From: Gammaproteobacteria bacterium
GTDB lineage: Bacteria; Pseudomonadota; Gammaproteobacteria; Eutrophobiales; Eutrophobiaceae
Direction: 5' to 3'
Assembly: GCA_965220815.1 (NCBI GenBank)
Contig: OZ244846.1
Location: 2,244,353 to 2,308,352, forward strand
DNA length: 64,000 bases
The notes beneath the pieces are model-generated. The model did no database searches. It was not told where the DNA came from and saw nothing but the letters and a program-made list of their open reading frames with translations. Position 1 is the first letter of the stretch. Every line of letters starts with the position of its first letter. The translations under genes were made by a program, and so were the position numbers. Of the stretch, positions 4,275 to 45,963 are shown piece after piece.

Positions 4275-5137
4275 TCAACCTCGCTCGTTATAACAAAAAC
4301 ACCTTCCCCCCCATGCTCAAAGTCAAGCCAGATGAAAGGAGTACGGGGATATTTCGTCTCAAGCGCAGCGCGGCCGTTACCGACTTCCACTACCAGGATA
4401 CCGTGGGGCGTTAGATGCTCGTGGGCATTGAGCAATATATTATCTACCACGTCCAGGCCGGTGGCGCCCGCCGCCAGGGCAAGGGACGGTTCATGCCGGT
4501 ATTCAGCCGGCAATGCCGCCATTTCCCCATCGGTTACATACGGCGGATTGCAGACAATTATATCATACCTGCTGCCTCCCAATGCGCTGAACAGGTCTGA
4601 TTCGACCAGGTTTACCCGCTGTCCCAGGCCGTGTCTTTCACAATTGATGCGCGCCACTTCGAGCGCATCCGGACTGATGTCCGTTGCATCGACAATCGCG
4701 GTGGGAAAGGCCAGGGCACAGGCGACGGCAATACAACCGCTGCCGGCGCCCAGGTCCAGGATGCGCGTTACATCCGGGGCCTTAATCCAGGGTGAGAACC
4801 TGTCACGGACCAGTTCGGCAATGGGTGAGCGGGGGACTAGGACGCGCTCGTCCACGTAGAACGGCAGGCCGGCAAACCAGGCCTTGTTGAGCAGGTAGGC
4901 CGTGGGCTTCCTGGAGCTGATCCTTTCGTCCACCAGTGCCCTGATACGCTCCTGGTCAGTTGTGCTTAATTCTCCGTTCAATTGTTCCTGGTTAAGGTCA
5001 AACGGCAAGTCCAGCGCACCTAACACCAGGTATGCGGCCTCATCCAGGGCGTTATCGGCGCCGTGGCCGAAAAACAGGTCCGACCGGATAAACTGTTGCT
5101 CGGTCCAGTCAATAAGTTGTCGGGGGGTAGTAAACAT
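4250..5137 (-). CDS. prmB: Ribosomal protein L3 N5-glutamine methyltransferase (PrmB, HemK family)
   Basis: SAM-binding motif DLGAGSGCIAV and the NPPY catalytic motif (IIVCNPPYV). Length 295 aa. The C-terminal tail probably reads artefactually into the inverted repeat. Confidence 0.8.
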   Translation of the reverse strand: MFTTPRQLIDWTEQQFIRSDLFFGHGADNALDEAAYLVLGALDLPFDLNQEQLNGELSTTDQERIRALVDERISSRKPTAYLLNKAWFAGLPFYVDERVLVPRSPIAELVRDRFSPWIKAPDVTRILDLGAGSGCIAVACALAFPTAIVDATDISPDALEVARINCERHGLGQRVNLVESDLFSALGGSRYDIIVCNPPYVTDGEMAALPAEYRHEPSLALAAGATGLDVVDNILLNAHEHLTPHGILVVEVGNGRAALETKYPRTPFIWLDFEHGGEGVFVITSEVDLSADDAD

Positions 5138-5179
5138 GAAAACTTTGCATTACCTGTATAGAGCGCATACACTATCACA

Positions 5180-5251
5180 ATGGACGTTGAATGGGACCCG
5201 GCCAAGTACGGCTTATCTCTGCACGTCGTGCTACGAAACTTGAGCGTAATG
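5180..5251 (+). pseudogene. Remnant of a BrnT-type toxin gene (only about 24 codons, MDVEWDPAKYGL…)
   Basis: The N-terminus matches the BrnT start (xVWDxxK) but runs straight into the brnA reading frame. The toxin body is absent. Confidence 0.4.
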
Positions 5252-7070
<1,819 letters not shown>

Positions 7071-29946: not shown

Positions 29947-30149
29947 AAGATCAGCTTGTCCAGTCGCTGGTGAATATGGCCGGGGATTATAACCGGAACG
30001 GAGATAAAAGGCTTGAACAGGCCGGTATTTCCCTGCGTGAGATACAGGCTCAAATCAGAAAAAAATACCGCCACCGGAGGGGGAGAACCGGTGGCGGTCA
30101 AGTATGGGAGTATGGACACTCCCGGGGGATAGAGGAGGGTAAACCTGTT

Positions 30150-30440
30150 TCAATTCAATACGCCAAACCGGTGCGGGTCCGGGTCCGCGATTCCCTGGTT
30201 GGCAACCGGAAAACCAAAGCGTCTTGCCCGCAGGGTTTCATCCTCATCGCTTTTTGCGGGAATACTTGCCTTGTCTTCATACTGGCGCTGCATGTTTTCT
30301 TTCAGTTCCTCAAAAACCTGCATGCGCAAGGCGCCATCCAGGTAGCTGTCGAGATCGTCAGCCCGGTTCTCGACGCTGGCCAGGACCAGCAAGCCTGCAA
30401 TCAAAGCAGCAGCAAAGTTTTTTCCGGTTAAAATGTTCAT
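30150..30440 (-). CDS. Small secreted hypothetical protein, 96 aa, with signal peptide
   Basis: ORF with N-terminal hydrophobic signal (AAALIAGLLVLASVENRA). No recognisable family. Confidence 0.35.
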   Translation of the reverse strand: MNILTGKNFAAALIAGLLVLASVENRADDLDSYLDGALRMQVFEELKENMQRQYEDKASIPAKSDEDETLRARRFGFPVANQGIADPDPHRFGVLN

Positions 30441-30641
30441 GTTCGTTCTCCTTTTATATGTAAGTTGTCTAACTAAATATGGGCTAAAAAATAGTTTTCA
30501 AGGGTGTCGGATATACACCGCCCACAGCCAACAGACATTGTGACAACATAAGCCATATCCGATTTGCAATGTCATGTTTTCTATACCTATCTAAGTTAAA
30601 TAACTAACTAATGTCCTGTTAAAAAATATAGTCCAGTCCTG

Positions 30642-31235
30642 CTATGCGGCAGCCCGTTCCTCTTCCCGGTAGTCCGGGTCCAGTCCCGTTATCCATTCCG
30701 CCACCGCCTTGAGCTGCTGTTTCAGTCGCCGGGGGTCGTTCAAAATATTACCCAGCAGTATTATTCCCTGTATGCGTGACACGAATTCAAATCCCAGTTC
30801 CTCGGCCTGTTTCAGGCCCATCAGCCGAAACTGTTCCGTCGACCAATCCACCAGGTACTTCATACAACTGTCTGCGCAGTCCATGAGTTCTCCACATTCC
30901 TCGTCCAGTTCCTGGCACAGGCCGCCCAGGGGGCACCCCGCTTCGGCCAGTTCCCTGCTGTGGCCTATCATTACCTTGATTAGATTCATCAAGGCATCCA
31001 TTGGTTCCCTTTTCCTGCAACAACTTTTCAACATGTTTGATAATGACTGCTTGCGTTCCGTGACAACTGCCTTGCAGATATCTTCCTTGGTCTTGAAATA
31101 ATAGTACACGTTGCCTAACGGTACTTTTGCTTCTTCAGCTATATCTGCCAGCGTGGTACGATAAAATCCTTGCCTGTGTATCAGGGCGTCGGCAGCACTA
31201 ATCAAACGTTCACGTTTATCGCTTATCCTCGGCAT
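30642..31235 (-). CDS. TetR/AcrR-family transcriptional regulator
   Basis: N-terminal HTH (…FYRTTLADIAEEAKVPLGNVYYYFKTKE…). Confidence 0.8.
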   Translation of the reverse strand: MPRISDKRERLISAADALIHRQGFYRTTLADIAEEAKVPLGNVYYYFKTKEDICKAVVTERKQSLSNMLKSCCRKREPMDALMNLIKVMIGHSRELAEAGCPLGGLCQELDEECGELMDCADSCMKYLVDWSTEQFRLMGLKQAEELGFEFVSRIQGIILLGNILNDPRRLKQQLKAVAEWITGLDPDYREEERAAA

Positions 31236-34569: not shown

Positions 34570-35871
34570 ATGACAGAGCAGGGGACATTTGACACCCTGG
34601 AGCCCATTGAAAAAGCCGGCATCGATGAGTTGCGCAACCTGCAACTGCAACGGCTGAAGTGGAGCCTGGAACACGCCTACGCCAACGTTGAAAGCTACCG
34701 GAAGAAATTTGACGCTGCCGGCGTCCATCCGTCAGACCTGAAGGAACTTGCCGACTTGTCCAAATTCCCGTTTACCGACAAGCATGACATGCGCGATAAC
34801 TACCCGTTCGGCATGTTTGCGGTGCCCATGGACGACGTGGTGCGCATACACGCCTCCAGCGGCACCACCGGCAAACCGGTGGTGGTGGGCTATACCCGCA
34901 ATGACATCGAGGTCTGGAGCCGCGTCGTGGCCCGCTCTATCCGGGCGGCCGGCGGCACTCATAAAGACAAGATACACGTGGCGTACGGCTACGGCCTGTT
35001 CACCGGCGGCCTGGGCGCCCATTACGGCGGCGAACTGATGGGTTGCACCGTCATACCCATGTCCGGCGGCCAGACGGAAAAACAGGCGCAACTCATACAG
35101 GACTTCGACCCCGACATCATCATGTTGACGCCGTCATACATGCTCAGTATCGCCGACGAACTGGAGCGCCAGGGCGTCGATTGCCGCAAGCTCAGGTTGC
35201 GAGTGGGGATCTTCGGCGCCGAACCCTGGACGGATTCCATGCGCGCCAACCTGGAACAGAGGCTGGACATCGACGCGGTGGACATATACGGTCTGTCCGA
35301 GGTCATGGGGCCCGGCGTTGCCCAGGAATGCGTGGAGACGAAGGATGGCCCCACCGTCTGGGAGGACCACTTCTACCCGGAAATCATCGACCCGGACACG
35401 GGAAAGGTATTGCCGGACGGGAAGGAGGGTGAACTGGTGTTCACCAGCCTCACCAAGGAAGCCCTGCCCGTAGTGCGCTACCGCACCCGGGACCTGACCC
35501 GGCTGCTGCCGGGAACCGCGCGCACCATGCGCCGCATGGGCAAGATCACCGGCCGCAGTGACGACATGCTGATCATCCGCGGCGTAAACGTGTTCCCCAC
35601 CCAGGTGGAAGAGCAGGTCCTCAAGGTCCCCGGCCTTGCTCCCCACTACCAGATCGAGGTCACCCGCAGCGGCAACCTGGACGAAATGAGCGTCAACGTG
35701 GAACTAGCCCCTGACGCCGATGCGATGGCGAAGCAGCCGGCGGCTGCCGCACTGCAGAAACACATCAAGGACCTGATCGGCGTCTCGGCAAGGGTCAACG
35801 TTCACGAAGAGGGCGGCGTGGCGCGCTCGGAAGGGAAGGCAAAACGCGTGATCGACAGGCGGAAGTTGTGA
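34570..35871 (+). CDS. paaK: Phenylacetate-CoA ligase
   Basis: Full-length PaaK similarity (SSGTTGKP AMP-binding motif, characteristic C-terminal domain). Start at the internal ATG (MTEQGTFDTLEP…). Confidence 0.9.
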   Translation: MTEQGTFDTLEPIEKAGIDELRNLQLQRLKWSLEHAYANVESYRKKFDAAGVHPSDLKELADLSKFPFTDKHDMRDNYPFGMFAVPMDDVVRIHASSGTTGKPVVVGYTRNDIEVWSRVVARSIRAAGGTHKDKIHVAYGYGLFTGGLGAHYGGELMGCTVIPMSGGQTEKQAQLIQDFDPDIIMLTPSYMLSIADELERQGVDCRKLRLRVGIFGAEPWTDSMRANLEQRLDIDAVDIYGLSEVMGPGVAQECVETKDGPTVWEDHFYPEIIDPDTGKVLPDGKEGELVFTSLTKEALPVVRYRTRDLTRLLPGTARTMRRMGKITGRSDDMLIIRGVNVFPTQVEEQVLKVPGLAPHYQIEVTRSGNLDEMSVNVELAPDADAMAKQPAAAALQKHIKDLIGVSARVNVHEEGGVARSEGKAKRVIDRRKL

Positions 35872-36007
35872 CCGCGCTTTTTATCAAGCCGGCTTTGGGT
35901 TATTTTGAACGCTCTGTTTGGAACTCGAAAAACCTTGACTTGCAACCGACAATACCCTTATTATGGTTCTCACTTAATATGTGAAATATAAGCCTGGGAA
36001 GATAAGT

Positions 36008-36259
36008 ATGAATATTACGCTGAGTATTGACGAGGAAATCATGAAGAAAGTGCGCAAGATAGCCATTGACAAGAATACGACGTTGACAGCTATGGTGCGA
36101 GACTACCTGACTGCCGTCGCAAAAAGCGATGCCGGCGTCAAACAGGAGCGTATTGCCGCGCTCAGAGAATCAATCAGGCGGCATGGCCGCGACCTCGGCC
36201 CGCGCACTTGGACCAGGGATGACCTCTATGAAGACCGACTTGGCCGCTATAACCGATAA
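36008..36259 (+). CDS. Ribbon-helix-helix antitoxin (VapB/CopG-like)
   Basis: MNITLSIDEEIMKKVRKIAIDKNTTLTAMVRDYL is an RHH beta-strand + helix pattern. Overlaps the downstream PIN gene. Confidence 0.6.
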   Translation: MNITLSIDEEIMKKVRKIAIDKNTTLTAMVRDYLTAVAKSDAGVKQERIAALRESIRRHGRDLGPRTWTRDDLYEDRLGRYNR

Positions 36260-36671
36260 GGTATTTTTCGATACCAATATCCTCGTCTATGCGTACGACC
36301 GGCAAGATCCGGTCAAACAGGAACGGGCCTTCAATATCCTTGCTGATGCTATCAGCAATGAGAATGGTGTCGTATCAGCACAGGTCCTGGGCGAATTTTA
36401 CAATGCAACTACCCGGCGTACTTCCAACCCGCTCCCAGAAGAAGTAGTGAGGGAAGCAATATCCCTGTTTGCTACCTTGCCGGTTATAGACATTGACCTC
36501 GCACTGGTGCAACGGGCGGTGGGCACCTGCAGCCGCTACCGGATTTCCTACTGGGACTCCTTGATCATAGCTGCCGCGGAAAAAGCAGGCTGTACGCGGA
36601 TTTACTCGGAGGATTTCAATACGGGCCAAACCTATCACGACATCCTTGTCGTCAATCCCTTTCAGTCCTGA
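36228..36671 (+). CDS. vapC: VapC-type PIN-domain toxin
   Basis: VFFDTNILVYAYD… with the PIN acidic quartet pattern. 147 aa from the ATG at 36228. Confidence 0.75.
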   Translation: MKTDLAAITDKVFFDTNILVYAYDRQDPVKQERAFNILADAISNENGVVSAQVLGEFYNATTRRTSNPLPEEVVREAISLFATLPVIDIDLALVQRAVGTCSRYRISYWDSLIIAAAEKAGCTRIYSEDFNTGQTYHDILVVNPFQS

Positions 36672-36834
36672 CCCGGAATCGGAAAATAGCAGAATTAGAA
36701 ACTGTGCTCCATCCGTTCAAACGCTTCATGTTAGACTGACCCCAGCATTCAAATTTGAAAGATAAAGTGATTAGAAATAAATAGTTACAGGTTTTTCATC
36801 CTGATAATTTCAGATCGCTAACGCGGCACTGCCG

Positions 36835-37047
36835 TCAGGATTCGTTTTTGGCGTCAGTGCTGCGTGCGGTGACGATTTTGGATAAGGCATCAGGGTATTC
36901 CACCCAAAGAGAATATTCCGGCAAGGTCATGCCGAGGAAATCGTAAATTGACTTGTTACTATTGCCTTGGTGCCACCGCTCGATATAGGTATCTATATCG
37001 GTAAGCCGGGCGGTCCCGGAAAGGTAATCTTGAATGAAATCAGACAC
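36835..37047 (-). CDS. Hypothetical small protein, 70 aa
   Basis: ORF 8 nt downstream of the MORN gene stop. No family assignment. Confidence 0.3.
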   Translation of the reverse strand: MSDFIQDYLSGTARLTDIDTYIERWHQGNSNKSIYDFLGMTLPEYSLWVEYPDALSKIVTARSTDAKNES

Positions 37048-37055
37048 GGATTTTC

Positions 37056-38582
37056 CTACTGGTATTCCCTGTCATAAACCATTCCGCCTACATAAGTAAC
37101 AGTTGCCGATACAGCGCCATCGGCAGAACGGGAGACCCATTGACCGCTCTTCTTGCCGTCCACGTAAAGACCTTCAAATACACCGCCATCATCGTAGCGG
37201 AAGACCCACTCACCGCTCTTCTTGCCCTCTACATAGGAGCCTTCCTCCACATGGGCGGAGGTGCGGAGGGTCCACTGGCCGTGCCGCTTGCCATCCATAT
37301 AAGGGCCTTCGGATACGCTGCCATCAGTGTAGCGAATGACCCACTGACCCTGCCGCTTGCCGTCCACGTGGGGCCCTTCCGCTACAATGACGCTGGCAGA
37401 TGAGCGCATCCCACCGAGATGCATGGCGTCCACGTAGCGGTCGTTCTCCACAGTGCCATCGGCGTAACGAATGATCCCCTGGCCTTGTGGCATGCCGTCC
37501 ACGTAGAAGCGTTCGTATACATTTCCATCGGCGTAACGGAAGTTCCAATGGCCGTGCCGTTCGTCGTCCACGAAGGAGCCTTCCTCCACATTTCCATTGG
37601 CATGACGGAAGATCCACTGGCCGTTCCGCTTGCCCCCCACATAGGAGCCTCTCGCTATACTGCCCTCGAAGGTGCGATGGGTCCACTGGCCGTGCATCTC
37701 GCCGTTCACATAAGAGCCTCCCCCATCCTCGCCATCGGCAAAGCGAATCAGCCAATGACCATGCTTAATGCCGTTCACGTAGGGGCCTTCCTCCACATCG
37801 CCATTGGCATGGCGAATCACCCAATGACCGTGCTGTTTGCCGTCCACGAAGGAGCCTCCCCCCACATCGCCACTGGCATAGCGAATGACCCACTGACCGT
37901 GTTCCTTGCCGTCCAAGTAGGAGCCTTCGAGTACAGCAGCGTCATCAGCAAGGCGAATCACCCACGGACCGTGCTGTTTGCCGTCCACGAAGGAACCTTC
38001 ATACACAACAGCGTCATCGACGGAGCGCATGATCCAGCGGCCGTGCCGCTTGCCGCCCTTAAACTGCCCTGTGTTTGTGTTCTTTGTCTCTCCATCACCT
38101 TTCAAATCCCAGGTATCCTCACCCATTCCTTCCGCCAGTCCGTTGGCACATCTGCCGCTCCATGTGACGGTTGAGTTGGCTATCAGACTGGGGTTCCAGA
38201 TATAACATCCGGTTGGGTCTTCCAACTCCATCCAGCATGCGCTGCCCTCCGGTTTGTCCGCGCACGTCATCTTGTCTTCCTGTAGCTTTTCTGCATCCGA
38301 TGGTGCGCCAATTCCGTTGCCCATCATGGCCGCAATTACGCTTTCCGCTATGCCCGCCTCCCGGAGCGCAACAAGCTGTTCTTCCGACATGTCAAAGTCG
38401 GTTCGACCGGACCGGATTATGGCGATGATGATTTCAGTCTCCAGCCCAGCCCGGTTCAAGCGCAGGATGTCCTCATTGGTGAGCGCCGCATCGTCGGCGC
38501 CAGGGGCCGGTGTGATAACAAGTATTAGAAGCCATACAGAAACCATTTGCCGGAAGAGGCTAGTCAGGGGCATCGTTTTCAT
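37056..38582 (-). CDS. Secreted MORN-repeat protein, about 15 tandem ~23-aa MORN-like units
   Basis: Signal peptide (MKTMPLTSLFRQMVSVWLLILVITPAPGA), then a Cys-containing N-terminal domain, then repeated G.Y.DGK.HG.WVIR.ADG…EG units. The start at 38582 forms an ATGA overlap with the upstream methyltransferase-like gene. Confidence 0.7.
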   Translation of the reverse strand: MKTMPLTSLFRQMVSVWLLILVITPAPGADDAALTNEDILRLNRAGLETEIIIAIIRSGRTDFDMSEEQLVALREAGIAESVIAAMMGNGIGAPSDAEKLQEDKMTCADKPEGSACWMELEDPTGCYIWNPSLIANSTVTWSGRCANGLAEGMGEDTWDLKGDGETKNTNTGQFKGGKRHGRWIMRSVDDAVVYEGSFVDGKQHGPWVIRLADDAAVLEGSYLDGKEHGQWVIRYASGDVGGGSFVDGKQHGHWVIRHANGDVEEGPYVNGIKHGHWLIRFADGEDGGGSYVNGEMHGQWTHRTFEGSIARGSYVGGKRNGQWIFRHANGNVEEGSFVDDERHGHWNFRYADGNVYERFYVDGMPQGQGIIRYADGTVENDRYVDAMHLGGMRSSASVIVAEGPHVDGKRQGQWVIRYTDGSVSEGPYMDGKRHGQWTLRTSAHVEEGSYVEGKKSGEWVFRYDDGGVFEGLYVDGKKSGQWVSRSADGAVSATVTYVGGMVYDREYQ

Positions 38583-39397
38583 CTCTGGCATTCCAGTTCC
38601 CAACCCATGCTGCCAGCCAATTCTGCGAGTTCCCGGTTCCGCCCTTTCACGAGTTTCGCCAAGTTATCAGAGAGCAGAACCCCACATCCCTTAAGGTCCT
38701 GGCTGGGCTTTGCCCCGCAGTCAGACCACAAAACCTGCCACGCCTCACATTGCGTGCGTTCCAGCAACTTCAGCGGCTTTGTAGGCCAGAAAAACGGATA
38801 CCAGGCCGCAAACGACTGATCTTGGCATTTCAGTTTTTTACATGTCTCAGCCAGGGAATTCCAATCCCTGTCCCTGGCTGCATTTGGAGAAAACGGAGGG
38901 TCGAGAAATGTCAAATCTTTGTCATTTTTATCGACGGCTCTTGTGAATCCATCATCTTGACAGAATGTCACTTCAACATTTTCGGGAACATATCCCCTTT
39001 TTTTCAGGTTGTACAAATCTTCATCACTATAATGGCATGCAACTTCCTCGCTGTTATCAAAGAGTGAAATCTGTACCCGTTTGAATCTTTTAGCAAGTAC
39101 ATTTGCTACGACCAGCCAACCGGACGGATATTTTTCCGGCGAATATTTTTTGACTATGTCCACATAAAAGTTGTCATTTGTTTCGCTATCAATTAAACAT
39201 TTGACGCCATGCTGCCATCCCCTGCCTTTGCTCAGGATATGAACAGGCGCGCCTGCGTGGCAATCAATATAGTGAATGGAATCTGAAGCCGAGGATAAAT
39301 TCCTTGCAATAATGGTCAGTATGAAATGTTTCCAGACATCACCCCTGTTTCCAGCTTTTTTGGAGTGATTGTAGCGTTTAACGTGGGAGTTGCCCAT
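38579..39397 (-). CDS. RlmJ/DUF519-family N6-adenine methyltransferase-like protein, 272 aa, divergent and low GC
   Basis: YNHSKKAGNRGDVWKHFIL matches RlmJ YRHSFHAGNHADVLKH. YIDCHAGAP matches YLDTHAGAG. FLDPPF matches IDPPYE (catalytic DPPY/F). AAWYPFF matches ALWYPV. Confidence 0.55.
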   Translation of the reverse strand: MGNSHVKRYNHSKKAGNRGDVWKHFILTIIARNLSSASDSIHYIDCHAGAPVHILSKGRGWQHGVKCLIDSETNDNFYVDIVKKYSPEKYPSGWLVVANVLAKRFKRVQISLFDNSEEVACHYSDEDLYNLKKRGYVPENVEVTFCQDDGFTRAVDKNDKDLTFLDPPFSPNAARDRDWNSLAETCKKLKCQDQSFAAWYPFFWPTKPLKLLERTQCEAWQVLWSDCGAKPSQDLKGCGVLLSDNLAKLVKGRNRELAELAGSMGWELECQR

Positions 39398-39421
39398 GAT
39401 CAGTATCAGTTGTGCTTCTGT

Positions 39422-39907
39422 TCAGTTGTGCTTCTCTAGCATCTCATTCAGCCAGGCTTTGGGGGGCTTGAGTTCTTTGCCTTTCAGCTTTAAAACCCCG
39501 TTCCGGACTACTTCAATTTCCAGGCGCTGCCTACCGTTTCTCCGGTAACTTCCGATCCAGCCCATCTGGCCAGAGTTGGGCAGGTCCGCCCAATTGCCAG
39601 CCATGCTTACGCCGTTATCCACTAAGACCCGGGTGAATGCCTTATGGTCGAATCGAATCGTACCGTTGTCCACGTAGTTAAACTGCCCTGCCAGTTTCTT
39701 TGCCAACCAGTCACTGTAGTAATTCGGGTTACGATACTCCTTAACTGCTTCCTTGATTGCATCCTCAATTACGGATTTTTTTAAAGCATACTCAACGTGT
39801 GCTTCCACTCTTTCCCAAACCTCGTCCGTGACTTCAATTCCACGCCAAATCTCATGGCCATTTGGCCATTCCTCTCTTTTTATTTCTACTTCGATGATTT
39901 TATTCAT
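39422..39907 (-). CDS. Hypothetical protein, 161 aa, first gene of the low-GC three-gene operon
   Basis: ORF with RBS-compatible spacing. No recognisable domain. GC content clearly below the window average. Confidence 0.4.
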   Translation of the reverse strand: MNKIIEVEIKREEWPNGHEIWRGIEVTDEVWERVEAHVEYALKKSVIEDAIKEAVKEYRNPNYYSDWLAKKLAGQFNYVDNGTIRFDHKAFTRVLVDNGVSMAGNWADLPNSGQMGWIGSYRRNGRQRLEIEVVRNGVLKLKGKELKPPKAWLNEMLEKHN

Positions 39908-39943
39908 CTTTAGGCTTTTGGCTCATCTGTGTGTGGACAAGGA

Positions 39944-40450
39944 CTAATACTCCGTCACACCCAGCTTGTCCTTGATTTTGACAATCAGTTCTTCGCGGCG
40001 ATGATGCATGTCGATCAGCGGTTCCTTGCGTAACTTTGCGATTTCCTCCGAGTCATAGGGCACGAACGGGTCGGGAAGTTCATTTTTGCTGAAATTCAGC
40101 AGCATCCAGTTCATCACGTCGGCCAGTTCCTGGTCCGAGATGGGGGCGCCGGCCGCGCCCGGGACCTGTACGATGAATTCCCTGCCGCCGGGCACGTGCA
40201 GGAAGTAACCGACGAAATCGTTCATCTTCGGTACGTTACCCTTGGAGCCGGACCCGTCCGGCAGGTGGCAGCCCTGGCAGTTCAGGATGTAGTTCTGGCG
40301 CGCAAGTATTTCATTGGCGCCGGTAGTTGCGCTGGCGCTTAACAGGATCAGGAGCAGGAATCCGGTGAATAATGTGTTGCCAAGGGTGGCATGTTTGTCT
40401 ACGTCCCTGTTCCTGGATACCGGCCATTCCCTGGCCGGTATGACGAACAA
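39944..40450 (-). CDS. Monoheme c-type cytochrome, periplasmic, candidate electron acceptor for the adjacent amine dehydrogenase
   Basis: A single CQGCH motif. The proposed TTG start at 40450 yields a signal peptide (…TLFTGFLLLILLSASATTGA). The track ORF extends further upstream into mauA. Confidence 0.6.
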   Translation of the reverse strand: MFVIPAREWPVSRNRDVDKHATLGNTLFTGFLLLILLSASATTGANEILARQNYILNCQGCHLPDGSGSKGNVPKMNDFVGYFLHVPGGREFIVQVPGAAGAPISDQELADVMNWMLLNFSKNELPDPFVPYDSEEIAKLRKEPLIDMHHRREELIVKIKDKLGVTEY

Positions 40451-40458
40451 GGCGTTCG

Positions 40459-40977
40459 TCACTTTATCGCCACGCCCAGGATGAGGTTCACGGTGCAGTG
40501 ATAAGCCGTGCTCTCCGTGCCCAGGCACCAGTTGTAATCATTGGAGGTATGGGGCCGGTAGGTGGGTCTGTCCCCTTCGTTCCTGTTGCAGAAGCAGTTG
40601 CCGCAGGACGTTTTGCCGCAGCAGTCGTTGTAGGAGATGATGTAATCCTTGCCGTCACCCGGGTTTTTGCAGGTGCCGATCCAGGTGATAGTCGACATCT
40701 CCGTGCCTGGCGGGCAACTGTTGATGGTGCCGCCGCAGCAGGAGCACAGGTAGCCGTCAATGGCGCAGTTGCGCCAGTATTCGCAGGTGGCCGGGTCTCC
40801 CGGGTCTACCGCGGGCGGGCTTGGTTGTTTCCCTTCCGCGGCGCGGGCGACCGGAAGCAGGGGCATGACCGATCCGCCTGCGATTACTGCGCCGAGTCCG
40901 CCCAGGAATCCCCTGCGGGAAGACGTCCTGGCTACGTTTCTGGTGAGGTTTTCCGTTAGTCTGTCCAACCAGTTCAT
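40459..40977 (-). CDS. mauA: Methylamine/aralkylamine dehydrogenase light (small, TTQ-bearing) subunit
   Basis: Tat-like signal (SSRRGFLGGLG), 12-Cys pattern, and close collinear similarity to the Paracoccus MADH light chain (CEYWRNCAIDGYLCSCCGGT.NSCPPGT … YNWCLGTE…YHC), including both TTQ tryptophan positions. Confidence 0.8.
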   Translation of the reverse strand: MNWLDRLTENLTRNVARTSSRRGFLGGLGAVIAGGSVMPLLPVARAAEGKQPSPPAVDPGDPATCEYWRNCAIDGYLCSCCGGTINSCPPGTEMSTITWIGTCKNPGDGKDYIISYNDCCGKTSCGNCFCNRNEGDRPTYRPHTSNDYNWCLGTESTAYHCTVNLILGVAIK

Positions 40978-40999
40978 ATTCTTTATCTCCCGCCGGCGC

Positions 41000-42160
41000 C
41001 TATTGCGAAGCATAGACCAGCAACGGCCAGTTATGGTAGAAATCGGCAATGGTGTTGAGGTGCTCGCCGGACCGGGCGTCATAGACTTCCAGGCTCATCT
41101 CAATGTTGGTGGTCACGATTTTCGGCGCATCGCCCATGGTGATGTCGAAAGCGATGGCCGGCAGCGTAAGCGGTATGCGCTGCACCCGCGTTTTACTGTC
41201 GGGATCGAATACCCAGATCTCCGAACCGGGGTAGTCATGGCTGCCTTCCTCGCCGTTTTCGTGCATCATCACGTAAAGTCGCCCGGTGCTGTCCGTCGCC
41301 GCCAGCCAGGCGCCGCCGGGGCGCCAGTTCTGCTCCCTGTCCTCATCGTTGAGCAGGCTCCATTGCTCACCGAGGTGGGCCGCGGCGCCGCTCAAGTCGA
41401 TTTCCTGCACCACGCCGTTGAAACTGGGAAAGTAACCCGTGCCGCCGATGATCGCCGGCCTTTCGAACAGGGCGTCCTCGTCGACGTCAAAGAACGGTTC
41501 AATCTTGCCCTGTTCGGTCACCTGGCCGTCTTCATCAAGCTGGAAACTGACCATGGAGCCGTTGCCGCACAAGGAACTGAACCCGCGTTTACCGGTGGGA
41601 TAAATGCCGGCGCAGGTCGGCAACGGGACGCCGTTGACGACCTCGCGTTTTTCCAGGTCGATCACGGTGACGAAGGTGCCGGGCGTGAAGCTGTAAAACA
41701 GCAGGAACCTTTCGTCGTCGATGAGCGAAATGACATACTTGCTGACCAGTATCTCCGCCCGTTTGAGTTTGGGATCGTCGAGGATGATTTCATCGACAGG
41801 CTGCAGGGTGGCCCTGTCGTAAATGGTCAAGACGTCGGTGCGGTTGCCGCGGGTGCCGCGGTCATAATAGTGCTCGAGCACGTACATTTCCGGTTTCTTC
41901 AGCGCCTGGGTAAAGGCCGCAATGAACCCGCCATTGAAACTTCCCTTGAAAAAATCCTTGATGTCCCCGCCGTTGATATCCAGCACCATGAAACGGCCCA
42001 CGGACATGTGATCGAAGGCGATGTCGTGGACGATGACCCAGTCGTTCGGGTAGGGAACAGGCAGGGTTTCGATCCTGCCCGGTTCATCAACCGGCAAATC
42101 CGCCAGGGCGGAATGTGTCATACCCAGAAACAGTATAAATCGCAGAAATTGTTTAAGCAT
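41000..42160 (-). CDS. mauB: Methylamine/aralkylamine dehydrogenase heavy subunit (7-bladed beta-propeller)
   Basis: Signal peptide and full-length similarity to the MauB/AauB family. Directly upstream of mauA with a 22-nt gap. Confidence 0.75.
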   Translation of the reverse strand: MLKQFLRFILFLGMTHSALADLPVDEPGRIETLPVPYPNDWVIVHDIAFDHMSVGRFMVLDINGGDIKDFFKGSFNGGFIAAFTQALKKPEMYVLEHYYDRGTRGNRTDVLTIYDRATLQPVDEIILDDPKLKRAEILVSKYVISLIDDERFLLFYSFTPGTFVTVIDLEKREVVNGVPLPTCAGIYPTGKRGFSSLCGNGSMVSFQLDEDGQVTEQGKIEPFFDVDEDALFERPAIIGGTGYFPSFNGVVQEIDLSGAAAHLGEQWSLLNDEDREQNWRPGGAWLAATDSTGRLYVMMHENGEEGSHDYPGSEIWVFDPDSKTRVQRIPLTLPAIAFDITMGDAPKIVTTNIEMSLEVYDARSGEHLNTIADFYHNWPLLVYASQ

Positions 42161-42267
42161 TATCGGATCTCAGTGGTAACAGGACAGACCTGATATATTA
42201 TACCCGTCTCTGTAATAATTGACGATAACCCTTTTTTCCTGAATTCAACAAACGCAAGGAGTCCGAA

Positions 42268-43365
42268 ATGGCAACAGGCTTTGTCTATCACGAACTTTAC
42301 ATGTGGCATGAGAACGGCAACTTTGCGGCTTTCATGCCTTTCGGAAACCCCGTGCAGCCCTATGTGCACGCGGAGCACCAGGAAACCAAGCGGCGCATAC
42401 GCAACCTGCTGGACGTCAGCGGCATCCTGAAGGACCTGATCCATATCGAGCCGCGGGAGGCTGTGAGGGAGGAAATCTGCCGGTTCCACACCCCGGATTA
42501 TTACGAGAGGATCAAGGCGCAGAACGACCAGTACCTGTCCGAGACCGGATTTTTCACCGCGATGGGCCGCGGCAGTTTCGAGATCTGTTCCCTGGCTGCC
42601 GGCGGCGTGATCGAGGCGGTCGATGCGGTGCTGGACGGCAGGGTGGACAATGCCTACGCCCTGGTGCGGCCGCCGGGACACCACGCCCTGGCCGATATGG
42701 GCATGGGGTTCTGCATATTCGGCAACGCGGCCATCGCCGGCATGCACCTGCTGGAGGAGCGCAAGCTGGACCGTATCGCCATAGTCGATTGGGACGTGCA
42801 TCACGGCAACGGCACCCAGGCCGCTTTCTGGAACAATCCCGCCGCCCTGACCATATCGGTGCACCAGGACAACTGTTTCCCTCCGGATTCGGGCCACATC
42901 AGCGAGGCGGGGGAGGGCGCCGGCGCGGGCTTCAACATCAACGTGCCGCTGCCTCCGGGTTCGGGAGTCGGCGCTTATGAGGCCGTCTATGACCGCATCG
43001 TCGTCCCGGCGCTGCAAAGGTACAAACCGGATTTCATCATCGTTCCGTCCGGCTTCGATGCGGGGGCGCACGACCCCCTGGGGCGGCAGATGTTGACCAG
43101 TGAATGCTTCCGCAGCCTGACGGCAAAGATGATGCAGGTCGCGGACGAGGTATGCGGTGGCCGCCTGGTGTTGTGCCATGAAGGTGGTTACAGCGGTCAC
43201 ACGGTGCCGTTCTTCGGCCTTGCGGTGATGGAACAGTTGTCAGGGATCAGTACAGGGGTCGAAGATCCGTTCGAACAGGTGCTGGCGGGCCTGGGAGGAC
43301 ATCCCCTGCAGCCGCACCAGGACGCGCTGATCCGCGCGGTGGAACCGCTGCTGGAGAAACTGTGA
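42268..43365 (+). CDS. Histone deacetylase-family amidohydrolase (acetoin utilisation / acetylpolyamine amidohydrolase-like)
   Basis: Zn-binding and catalytic motifs (…RPPGHHA…, DWDVHHGNGTQ…, GFDAGAHDPLG). Confidence 0.8.
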   Translation: MATGFVYHELYMWHENGNFAAFMPFGNPVQPYVHAEHQETKRRIRNLLDVSGILKDLIHIEPREAVREEICRFHTPDYYERIKAQNDQYLSETGFFTAMGRGSFEICSLAAGGVIEAVDAVLDGRVDNAYALVRPPGHHALADMGMGFCIFGNAAIAGMHLLEERKLDRIAIVDWDVHHGNGTQAAFWNNPAALTISVHQDNCFPPDSGHISEAGEGAGAGFNINVPLPPGSGVGAYEAVYDRIVVPALQRYKPDFIIVPSGFDAGAHDPLGRQMLTSECFRSLTAKMMQVADEVCGGRLVLCHEGGYSGHTVPFFGLAVMEQLSGISTGVEDPFEQVLAGLGGHPLQPHQDALIRAVEPLLEKL

Positions 43366-44149: not shown

Positions 44150-45439
44150 TCAGAAACCGAGATAACGGGGCAATAAAAGACTGATTTCCGGTATGTAGGT
44201 GACGATGACGAGCGCGATCACATTTACCAGCAGCAATGGCGCGATTGCCTTGATCAACGTGAATAAATCACAACCGGCAATGGTTTCCGCAGTCAGCAGG
44301 CAGATGCCGAGGGGGGGTGTAAGCAGGCCTATATTGAGGTTCAGTATCATTATCACGGAAAAATGCAGGGGATGGATGCCGATATTGGTTGCCGCAGCCA
44401 GGAGCAGGGGTGAAAACAGGATAATTGCCGCGGCGGTATCGATGAACATGCCGGCAATCAATAAAAACACATTAAGGAACACCAGGCTCGTGATTGCCGA
44501 CATGTCCATGGAAACCAGGAAGGAGTTCAACAGGTCCGGCACGTGCTCCACCGCCAATATCCAGGAAAGTATTGAACCGCACCCCACCAGTATCATCAGT
44601 TGTGATGAAAATACCATTGCCCGCGAGAAGATCCCCGGCAGGCTGTCAAGCCTGAGGGTCCGGTACAGCCGCAGGGTGATGAGCAGGGTATAACCTGCCG
44701 CGATGGCGCCGGCTTCGGTGGGTGTGGCGATGCCGGCGATAATACAGACGACGATGATAAGCGGTATCATCAGGGGAACTATGGCCGAGCGGGTCGCCTG
44801 CATGACGGCCGGAAACGAGCGGTCGATGTCCCTGCGCCGGGAAGCCGCCTGTGGCAGCGCCGCAACCAGCAGCATCTGCATGACCCCGATCAATATGCCG
44901 GGAATGACACAGGCTGCGAACATTGCGCCGATGGACATGCCGGTGGCCGCGCCGAATACGATGATTACCAGTGAAGGCGGCACCATCGGGCCGACAATCG
45001 ATGAAGCCGCCGTCACGGCTGCCGCGTAGGCTGCCGGGAAACCCTGTCCGGTCATTGCCGGTATGAAGACCCTGCCCAGCGCCGCGACGTCTCCGACGGC
45101 CGTGCCCGTGATGCCGGAAAAAAGAATTGATGTGGCGATGTTGACCTGCGCCAGGCCGCCGCGCAGCCGGCCGAAACAAACGTCCGCCATATTGATTAAC
45201 TTATCGGTAACCCTGCCTGCGTTTATTATTTCGCCTGTGAGGACGAACAGGGGGATGGCCAGCAACACAAACACGTCGATACCTTCGAACAGGCGCTGGG
45301 GAATAATCTGTAGAAAATGATAATTGCCGGTAAAGATAATCCAGGAGACCGACGCGCACAGCATGGCCCAGGCAATGGGCATGCCTGCCAGGATAAATGA
45401 CAGGAAGACCGCAATCAGAACAATCAGGGAAACGCTCAT
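44150..45439 (-). CDS. dctM: TRAP transporter large permease subunit
   Basis: 429 aa and about 12 TM helices with DctM-family similarity. Confidence 0.85.
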   Translation of the reverse strand: MSVSLIVLIAVFLSFILAGMPIAWAMLCASVSWIIFTGNYHFLQIIPQRLFEGIDVFVLLAIPLFVLTGEIINAGRVTDKLINMADVCFGRLRGGLAQVNIATSILFSGITGTAVGDVAALGRVFIPAMTGQGFPAAYAAAVTAASSIVGPMVPPSLVIIVFGAATGMSIGAMFAACVIPGILIGVMQMLLVAALPQAASRRRDIDRSFPAVMQATRSAIVPLMIPLIIVVCIIAGIATPTEAGAIAAGYTLLITLRLYRTLRLDSLPGIFSRAMVFSSQLMILVGCGSILSWILAVEHVPDLLNSFLVSMDMSAITSLVFLNVFLLIAGMFIDTAAAIILFSPLLLAAATNIGIHPLHFSVIMILNLNIGLLTPPLGICLLTAETIAGCDLFTLIKAIAPLLLVNVIALVIVTYIPEISLLLPRYLGF

Positions 45440-45963
45440 GGTTCAAGCCGGGAGTTAACCCGGGTTAAAATGCGGACAATGGATACGACTGATGCAACAG
45501 TGAAAAAAACGGGTATCGCAGCAACCGGAACCGACAGGGGGATTCCCATGGCGATACTTTTTTCAAGGTGCAGAAACAGCGCCAGTTTGAATCCGTAAAC
45601 TGCTACGAGCGCATACAGGCAAAAACTGATCAATTCGAGAAACAATCCAAACCAGTTTCCGGTCAAGCGGTCAAAAAAATATTGCAGCACGCCAACCCGT
45701 ATATGAGTGCCATGAACGATGGCGGATGCAACGCCTGAAAATACGCCCCAGGTGCAGAGATAACGCGCGGCTTCCTCCATGAAAAACGGCACGGACTGCA
45801 ACAGGTAACGCATCGCAACCTGTACGATGATTACCAGGAACACCAGCGCGAGGCTGGCGCCGGCGACAACCCGGAGCGCCTGGTCCAGCCTGCCGATCAT
45901 CGTTTCAACCCCCGGGCCGGTATCAATGCCTGGCATGTCTGCTTGCCGAGACAACTTCATCAA
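45436..45963 (-). CDS. dctQ: TRAP transporter small permease subunit
   Basis: 4-TM, 175-aa protein overlapping the dctM start. Confidence 0.75.
   Translation of the reverse strand: MMKLSRQADMPGIDTGPGVETMIGRLDQALRVVAGASLALVFLVIIVQVAMRYLLQSVPFFMEEAARYLCTWGVFSGVASAIVHGTHIRVGVLQYFFDRLTGNWFGLFLELISFCLYALVAVYGFKLALFLHLEKSIAMGIPLSVPVAAIPVFFTVASVVSIVRILTRVNSRLEP

Follow-up and report, generated by a model that had tools for sequence, protein, structure and literature searches.

The segment between 35.9 and 39.9 kb of a 64-kb stretch of gammaproteobacterial DNA (contig OZ244846.1; the whole stretch is referred to below as the window, and the coordinates of islet genes are window positions) carries four closely spaced minus-strand genes, g1 to g4, and a toxin–antitoxin gene pair. 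Comparison with related contigs indicates that this segment is probably a strain-variable flexible islet, being a mosaic of unrelated accessory genes and not a functional module. The islet would be wedged between two core blocks, paaZ/paaK on one side and the amine-dehydrogenase (mau-like) and cytochrome c genes on the other. Among its genes, g2 is predicted from its modelled structure to be an N6-adenine methyltransferase of RlmJ architecture, with the catalytic residues intact. The features of the islet are as follows.

39422–39907, minus strand: g1, open reading frame (ORF) of 161 amino acids (aa)
39406–39435, no strand: scar at the g1–g2 junction, a 14-nucleotide (nt) direct duplication of the 3' end of g1
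38579–39397, minus strand: g2, ORF of 272 aa
37056–38582, minus strand: g3, ORF of 508 aa counted from the ATG that overlaps the g2 TGA
36835–37047, minus strand: g4, ORF of 70 aa, 8 nt after g3
35981–36671, plus strand: RHH(DUF6364)/PIN toxin–antitoxin pair (RHH 35981–36259, PIN about 36228–36671), convergent with g4

In the initial annotation, made from the sequence of the window, g1, g2 and g3 were described as a low-GC operon of three linked minus-strand genes. The linkage was found exactly as described, with 24 nt between g1 and g2 and with the shared ATGA of g2 and g3 at 38582–38579. The guanine-plus-cytosine (GC) content was also given roughly correctly (about 45% for the first two genes against about 60% for the surroundings; here 0.477 for g1, 0.463 for g2, 0.572 for g3 and 0.479 for g4, against 0.572 for the window), but the anomaly is not restricted to g1 and g2. 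By the GC content at third codon positions (GC3), which is a better discriminator than GC, the neighbouring core genes range between 0.72 and 0.80, whereas g2 gives 0.489, the lowest value among the 56 ORFs of the window, followed by g4 (0.563), g1 (0.565), the RHH/PIN pair (0.58–0.60) and g3 (0.645). The compositionally atypical segment is the entire 35.9–39.9 kb, from paaK to the cytochrome c gene, beyond g1 and g2 alone.

The mosaic nature of the islet is indicated by its relatives. In the related contig L012, collinearity with the window extends at about 86% nt identity through paaZ, paaK, g4, g1, cytochrome c, mauA, mauB and beyond, being broken at 35868–36847 and at 37060–39424, and an 870-bp segment with two small ORFs is present in L012 where the window has g2 and g3. 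In L012, L014 and L015, g1 comes immediately behind mauB, mauA and the cytochrome c gene, and g2 and g3 are missing, while g4 is collinear with a 78-aa ORF (81% nt identity), which follows a 103-aa ORF after 30 nt. This 103-aa ORF of the L012-type locus is the gene displaced in the window by g2–g3. Since g1 and g4 are kept in these three contigs without g2 and g3, both appear to belong to the locus, and g2 plus g3 to represent a 2.37-kb replacement. Judged from this arrangement, both g1, a low-GC accessory gene with which the amine-dehydrogenase cluster ends, and g4 are residents. The gene neighbourhood of the 161-aa g1, proposed initially as a check of the three-gene grouping, turned out to contradict that grouping, because g1 stays at the locus when its supposed partners are missing.

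Homologues of g2 with 74–85% protein identity occupy other loci, including a hemB–glnA island with HipA and HTH genes (L001, L007 and L008), a site beside AbiE genes (L098) and an island with LexA, Sel1 and DUF4145 genes (L099 and L100). At other g2 loci the nt similarity to the window (82–91%) ends at the edges of the g2 ORF, and at least five further contexts contain g2 with neither g1 nor g3. The adjacency of g2 and g3 was found only in L009, L010 and L011. In L009 (85% identity), a g3 homologue and the PIN/RHH pair known from the window come after g2, with g1 and g4 missing. L010 and L011 alone hold the trio of g1, g2 and g3; across these three genes both match the window at 98% identity, and L010 has a different gene beyond the toxin–antitoxin pair. 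This pair adjoins g3 in L009 and L010 and is missing from L012, L014 and L015. Altogether, the conserved flanks (paaK on one side, mau and cytochrome c genes on the other) enclose different cargo in each relative.

The junctions carry traces of recombination. Most of the g1–g2 spacer is accounted for by a perfect duplication, 14 nt long, of the end of g1 with its stop codon (39406–39419 and 39422–39435); similarity to other g2 loci starts about 10 nt before the g2 ATG, and that to L012 ends at the g1 stop. In L009, the nearest relative, g2 and g3 are separated by a 179-nt spacer with CCAGAGA repeats at its ends. Since this spacer is missing in the window, as it is in L010, g2 and g3 abut at the ATGA; the overlap is therefore recent and may not mark the real start of g3, which is at 38582 or, more likely, at 38573, the latter corresponding to the ATG of g3 in L009 and lying 5 nt after the g2 stop. 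At its other end, g3 of the window extends two codons beyond the L009 stop and terminates at the TAG of the displaced 103-aa ORF of L012. These scars suggest that the tight spacing records recent splicing and not conserved translational coupling. As a general point, close spacing and start/stop overlaps can stem from recent recombination or deletion, and the inference of an operon needs comparison with relatives. An integron gene cassette was also considered and rejected: the noncoding gaps are only 24, 0–5 and 8 nt, too small for attC, and no suitable attC-type inverted repeat was found at the gene 3' ends.

In the flexible-islet reading, the 2.37-kb piece with g2 and g3 would have replaced the 870-bp segment between the residents g1 and g4, the RHH/PIN pair would have been added on the far side of g4, and the tight spacing would be a by-product of illegitimate recombination and small deletion. 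The genes g1 to g4 would probably be read through together from upstream promoters, a co-transcription that is plausible because no terminator separates the genes. In a promoter and terminator scan, promoter-like and terminator-like sites were no commoner than in shuffled sequence, and an Rfam scan of 35–41 kb at E ≤ 1 gave no match. The locus resembles flexible genomic islets at core-gene hotspots with respect to conserved flanks, variable cargo, toxin–antitoxin genes, atypical GC3 and mosaic breakpoints, but is different from typical ones in that no integrase, tRNA gene or attachment repeats were found at the islet, and in that the junctions lie almost exactly at ORF ends.

The relationship of g2 to RlmJ, the 23S rRNA m6A2030 methyltransferase of Escherichia coli (YhiR; PF04378; PDB 4BLU, 6QE5 and 7P9O), was supported by both sequence and predicted structure. 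By phmmer, g2 matched the E. coli RlmJ chains in PDB with E = 1e-7 over nearly the full length, including the DPPF motif, at about 22% identity. No family was reported for g2 at E ≤ 0.1 by Pfam and NCBIfam, the RlmJ model included; several g2 homologues carry weak precomputed PF04378 matches, and several are labelled RlmJ by NCBI and JGI. The AlphaFold2 model of g2 is confident (predicted local distance difference test score, pLDDT, 90.6) and shows the characteristic RlmJ fold, a Rossmann-like methyltransferase fold into which a helical subdomain is inserted. The top 14 matches by Foldseek against PDB were all RlmJ or LPL1258, its Legionella homologue, with template-modelling (TM) scores of 0.71–0.77 over the whole chain, 0.77 being that to E. 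coli RlmJ, and the next match fell below 0.42. The initial description of g2 as an RlmJ-like protein with DPPF, very divergent and outside a ribosomal context, was thus borne out.

Both proteins are about 270–280 aa in length and have in common a motif X tail at the N-terminus (Y-x-H-S-x-x-A-G-N-x-x-D-V-x-K-H), motif IV (DPP(Y/F)) and a W-Y-P motif for base stacking. In E. coli RlmJ, Y4, H6, K18 and D164 are essential as judged by mutagenesis (PMC3814359), and N12, H19 and W195 touch the cofactor or the target adenine (PMC9178011). The corresponding residues of g2, Y9, H11, N17, K23, H24, D166 (equivalent to Y4, H6, N12, K18, H19 and D164, respectively; D166 within D166-P-P) and W199 (equivalent to W195), are invariant in a 41-sequence family alignment. 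By analogy, g2 would bind S-adenosylmethionine and flip the target adenine against W199, with D166-P-P-F and K23 activating N6 for methyl transfer. Homology points to a hairpin loop of RNA as the likeliest substrate; the default candidate would be 23S rRNA, at A2030 of helix 72. In the E. coli enzyme, F8 of the tail stacks on A2031 and the strictly conserved H9 on A2030 (PMC9178011). At these positions g2 has K13-K14, and its subfamily either Lys-Lys or Arg-Lys, so that neither His9 nor an aromatic residue 8, by which membership of the RlmJ family was judged, is present in g2. Lys was found at the His9 position in 38 of the 40 subfamily members, whereas distant RlmJ-like proteins such as that of Methanothrix keep His. 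The subfamily also differs from E. coli RlmJ in having its own C-terminal K-G-C-G motif. Because the tail His9/Phe8 is replaced by Lys and Arg/Lys, and because the gene behaves as a mobile accessory, the target of g2 may differ from that of RlmJ. Among gammaproteobacterial copies of g2, the ratio of nonsynonymous to synonymous substitution (dN/dS) was 0.25–0.46, against 0.08–0.15 for core genes (window compared with L012).

The g2 subfamily is sparse and scattered. A word-indexed search of 5.8 billion proteins gave 59 g2 clusters. Two peptide patterns unable to match canonical RlmJ were scanned against 185,579 species, each represented by one genome, and gave about 86 relatives, roughly 15 of them in the close subfamily. 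The hosts of the latter are Vicinamibacterales, one alphaproteobacterial metagenome-assembled genome (MAG), gammaproteobacterial MAGs from sponge and soil, Thermoanaerobaculia and Nitrospirota. In nearly every host, across phyla, the close-subfamily genes are 0.03–0.18 lower in GC than their flanks, whereas the distant relatives match their hosts. No neighbour gene is conserved across the subfamily. The relatives often adjoin integrase, transposase, toxin–antitoxin, abortive-infection or nuclease genes; the neighbours of the subfamily include integrases (4), IS110 and ISL3 transposases, AIPR, DruA, SNase, HNH-HIT, AbiE and HipA. One copy adjoins a gene for a 1532-aa helicase fused to an MTES_1575 nuclease; this copy lies in a viral contig of IMG/VR, next to genes for a portal protein and a protease. 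The nucleases beside subfamily members differ between loci. Decayed copies were also identified, truncated in L022 and frameshifted in L027.

By its varied loci, its absence from the locus in L012, L014 and L015, its GC below the flanks and its pseudogenes, g2 does not behave as a housekeeping gene. These comparisons indicate that g2, very divergent and compositionally foreign, represents an uncommon branch of the RlmJ family that moves horizontally, and the horizontal acquisition suggested initially is well supported by its low GC3 and by the low GC of the subfamily relative to its flanks. The patchy distribution, low GC, mobile-element and defence-island neighbours and pseudogenes set the subfamily apart from E. 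coli RlmJ. The gene g2 also resembles solitary mobile N6-adenine methyltransferases such as the Dam-like phage enzymes, which likewise stand alone without an adjacent restriction enzyme, carry (D/N)PP(Y/F), are horizontally mobile and are tied to variable islands. It is different from these enzymes in having an RlmJ-type fold without a DNA target-recognition domain and in being without evidence of DNA activity, and also in its absence from mobile-element collections: among 50,697 phage and 72,556 plasmid records, no subfamily member was detected, but only canonical rlmJ at 21–26% identity. A 277-aa ORF of L022 with a GNDGNYLQH motif was considered as a second RlmJ-like protein and rejected (hhalign probability 0.2%). 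The enzyme family is known; no paper was found that describes an RlmJ-like subfamily with such a distinctive tail motif and mobile behaviour, nor was any found on RlmJ paralogues or mobile RlmJ-like genes.

In the gammaproteobacterial clade, a 98-aa ORF, s98, precedes the g2 homologue by 40–115 nt in five contexts (L001/L002, L009, L022, L098 and L099/L100), at the following positions.

L001:7650–7946, L099:5171–5467, L022:4317–4613, L009:995–1240 and L098:5661–5948: s98, ORF upstream of a g2 homologue

It is degraded in two of these contexts, being partial in L009 and frameshifted in L098. The protein has the invariant motifs R-C-T-Y-G ... P-E-A-S-W-V-V ... P-T-x-Y, is known from only 12 protein clusters and is missing from the window. 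Profile annotation gave no supported family, the best match being a sub-threshold one to PF17525 (PflM/DUF5447; E 9e-4). Two other assignments were rejected: an MGMT/ATL DNA-binding domain was unsupported in profile searches of PDB and Pfam, and the 98-aa upstream ORF of L001 has no similarity to g1, of which it had been taken as a possible homologue.

In the initial annotation, g1, g2 and g3 were regarded as a possible acquired functional module, whether a cassette for modification or defence or a surface-protein locus carrying its own modifier. Such a module could account for the common strand, the 24-nt gap, the ATGA overlap, the GC3 of all three genes below that of the core, and the intact trio in L010 and L011. 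These two contigs, however, being 98% identical to the window, are not independent, and the three families otherwise assort independently: L009 has g2–g3 without g1 and with the 179-nt spacer, L012, L014 and L015 have g1 alone, both partners of g2 are missing in five other contexts, and the junction scars show recent assembly. The module is thus largely refuted by the comparative data and must be regarded as highly improbable. As to the defence-associated cassette, a mobile-element or defence-island setting is reasonable in view of the neighbours of the relatives, but a PADLOC scan of the g1–g4 proteins matched no defence model. In addition, no nuclease gene was found in the islet apart from the PIN toxin, so that g2 differs from restriction–modification and other known defence systems in having neither a cognate nuclease in the islet nor a match to a curated defence model. 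Several points weigh on the other side, against the flexible-islet reading as a whole. The g2–g3 pair recurs in L009 with its own spacer, and a looser two-gene association is possible in this lineage; some Vicinamibacterales copies of g2 have common neighbours, suggesting longer residence there; and tight packing on the same strand permits co-expression, which can create functional links without common ancestry. The host relatives are from sponge metagenomes, and the sponge-symbiont origin rests on the names of the samples that gave related contigs. The substrate of g2 is extrapolated wholly from E. coli RlmJ, the sole characterised relative, at 22% identity, and if the genome has no other rlmJ, g2 could simply be the working RlmJ.

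This last possibility, a xenologous replacement methylating 23S A2030 during ribosome assembly, with its position in a variable region incidental, is somewhat unlikely. The full-length RlmJ fold, the retention of every residue essential by mutagenesis (PMC3814359), purifying selection (dN/dS of g2 below 0.5), the RlmJ labels given to several homologues by NCBI and JGI, and the finding of no second rlmJ within the 64-kb window all agree with it, but a ribosomal housekeeping function is hard to reconcile with presence or absence at the locus among close relatives, pseudogenised copies (L022 and L027), mobile-element genes in the neighbourhoods and a very sparse distribution. In addition, the equivalent of the A2030-stacking H9 is Lys in nearly all the subfamily (38/40) and His in distant RlmJ-like proteins (PMC9178011), and g2 is not reported at E ≤ 0.1 by the RlmJ Pfam model or any NCBIfam model. 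Still less probable is that g2 is an orphan methyltransferase borne by mobile elements, originally together with s98, and acting on DNA or non-ribosomal RNA, for instance to mask sites from nucleases. The RlmJ active site resembles those of DNA m6A methyltransferases, but E. coli RlmJ is inactive on single-stranded DNA (PMC3814359), and g2 has no evident target-recognition domain. The nucleotide-contacting residues of the tail are altered, s98 lies directly upstream of g2 in its five contexts (L001/L002, L009, L022, L098 and L099/L100), HNH-HIT, helicase–MTES_1575 and SNase genes adjoin several subfamily members, and one copy is in the viral contig with portal and protease genes; on the other hand, s98 is missing from the window and has only the sub-threshold PflM match (best E 9e-4), the neighbouring nucleases vary by locus, and neither the 50,697 phage nor the 72,556 plasmid records contain a subfamily member. 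Extended to the Lys-tail subfamily as a whole, the proposal that a mobile orphan N6-adenine methyltransferase has left 23S A2030 for DNA or other RNA in the service of mobile elements, ancestrally with s98, is equally doubtful; a possible role would be to shield some target against a nuclease or a toxin in symbiont genomes rich in defence genes. If the target of g2 is not A2030, the RlmJ annotations would be wrong for the whole branch, and the fold of an rRNA-modification enzyme would have been recruited by mobile elements. Returning to the flexible islet, such islets are commonplace in genomes of this kind, as are toxin–antitoxin pairs and repeat proteins; the islet itself is ordinary, and the orphan methyltransferase is mildly interesting.

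With respect to the other cargo, g3 appears from its sequence to be an exported MORN-repeat protein. It matched Pfam MORN (PF02493) with E = 5.4e-10 and 39 bits, above the gathering cutoff of 22.5, and phrog_7324 with 5e-19. About 14 repeats of 23 aa are present, 11–12 in-register repeats of 69 nt were found in the DNA, and the N-terminus has a signal-peptide-like hydrophobic segment, so judged by eye. The MORN repeats claimed in the initial annotation were thus confirmed, the secretion signal by eye only. The protein is 64% identical to a 433-aa protein of L009. It resembles bacterial exported MORN proteins (PF02493; the Leptospira LIC20035 adhesin family) in the tandem 23-aa repeats after a signal-like N-terminus, but the LIC20035-adhesin model of NCBIfam, although matched at 3e-19, scored under its cutoff (69 against 250 bits). 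The repeat number varies between strains, as in bacterial MORN proteins and in the eukaryote-like repeat proteins that sponge symbionts carry (PMC5649159). Sponge symbionts are rich in defence genes and eukaryote-like repeat genes (PMC5649159), and g3 would be, independently of g2, an exported protein of a eukaryote-like repeat type common in these symbionts; a literature search on MORN proteins in sponge symbionts gave no paper. No evidence was found that ties the g3 protein to g2 as a substrate. In L010, the sequence is 98.4% identical to the window over 37178–40040 and about 84% over 35926–37986; this shift in identity at 37178–37986 suggests a recombination breakpoint inside the MORN repeats. 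Gene calling split the MORN gene of L010 into two ORFs, one of 308 and one of 194 aa.

The resident g1 codes for a cytoplasmic 161-aa protein without family assignment in the family libraries scanned, Pfam, NCBIfam and PHROGs among them. Close homologues form only seven clusters, and its AlphaFold model is poor (pLDDT 50), too low for a fold search. A profile search with g1 gave 283 relatives (clusters at 50% identity) among 1.84 billion representative proteins, most of them proteins of about 250 aa that end in the g1-like domain and begin with M-x-I-H-H-A-T-A-K-K-A. The C-terminal residues of g1, about 120 in number, represent an unannotated domain family (window 39422–39907; proteins P0067–P0214), and Pfam and PHROG scans of the tested members gave no supported family. 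Ochrobactrum phage vB_OspP_OH contributes one relative, gp15, an early-region gene upstream of its primase-polymerase gene. The other resident, g4, which the initial annotation does not mention, matches several PHROG families of unknown function, the best being phrog_12828 (2e-7).

L014 and L015, the latter from a sponge metagenome, keep the same locus layout as L012, with a DUF429 gene after g1. DUF429 genes recur at or near these sites (L014:2466–3221, L015:1711–2466, L022:3294–4088 and 5059–5676, and L004:11192–12313): one stands immediately behind g1, at the place that g2 takes in the window, the g2 homologue of L022 is truncated by another, and a further one lies 2.4 kb from a Vicinamibacterales g2 homologue, either by chance or as a mobile gene competing for the same spots.

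The flanks were correctly described at the outset, with a toxin–antitoxin pair on one side and mau-like amine-dehydrogenase genes on the other. The former matched the Pfam families DUF6364 (7e-8), RHH_1 (9e-4) and PIN (2.6e-13), and, as is typical of VapBC-type pairs, the small RHH antitoxin gene overlaps the PIN-domain toxin gene; L009 and L010 carry this pair too. On the opposite flank, the genes are collinear with the Me-amine-dh_H and Me-amine-dh_L genes of L012. This amine-dehydrogenase cluster (window 39944–43365) comprises genes for the heavy chain, the light chain and a small c-type cytochrome-like protein, and adjoins a gene of the histone-deacetylase family and TRAP transporter genes (annotation of L012). 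Since no accessory gene of mauD/mauE type is called between the subunit genes in L012, the substrate of the amine dehydrogenase may not be methylamine.

Besides the islet, further ORFs with low GC3 (<0.61) were found in the window at 1813–2184, 5180–5503, 29970–31235 and 45439–45963, suggesting that several small compositionally atypical patches are scattered in the region. A 317-aa ORF at 307–1257 on the minus strand (GC3 0.517) has a translation about 78% identical to that of L008:10191–11135, a 314-aa HTH_3 gene in the island that bears a g2 homologue, and this match suggests an accessory gene pool common to both lineages.

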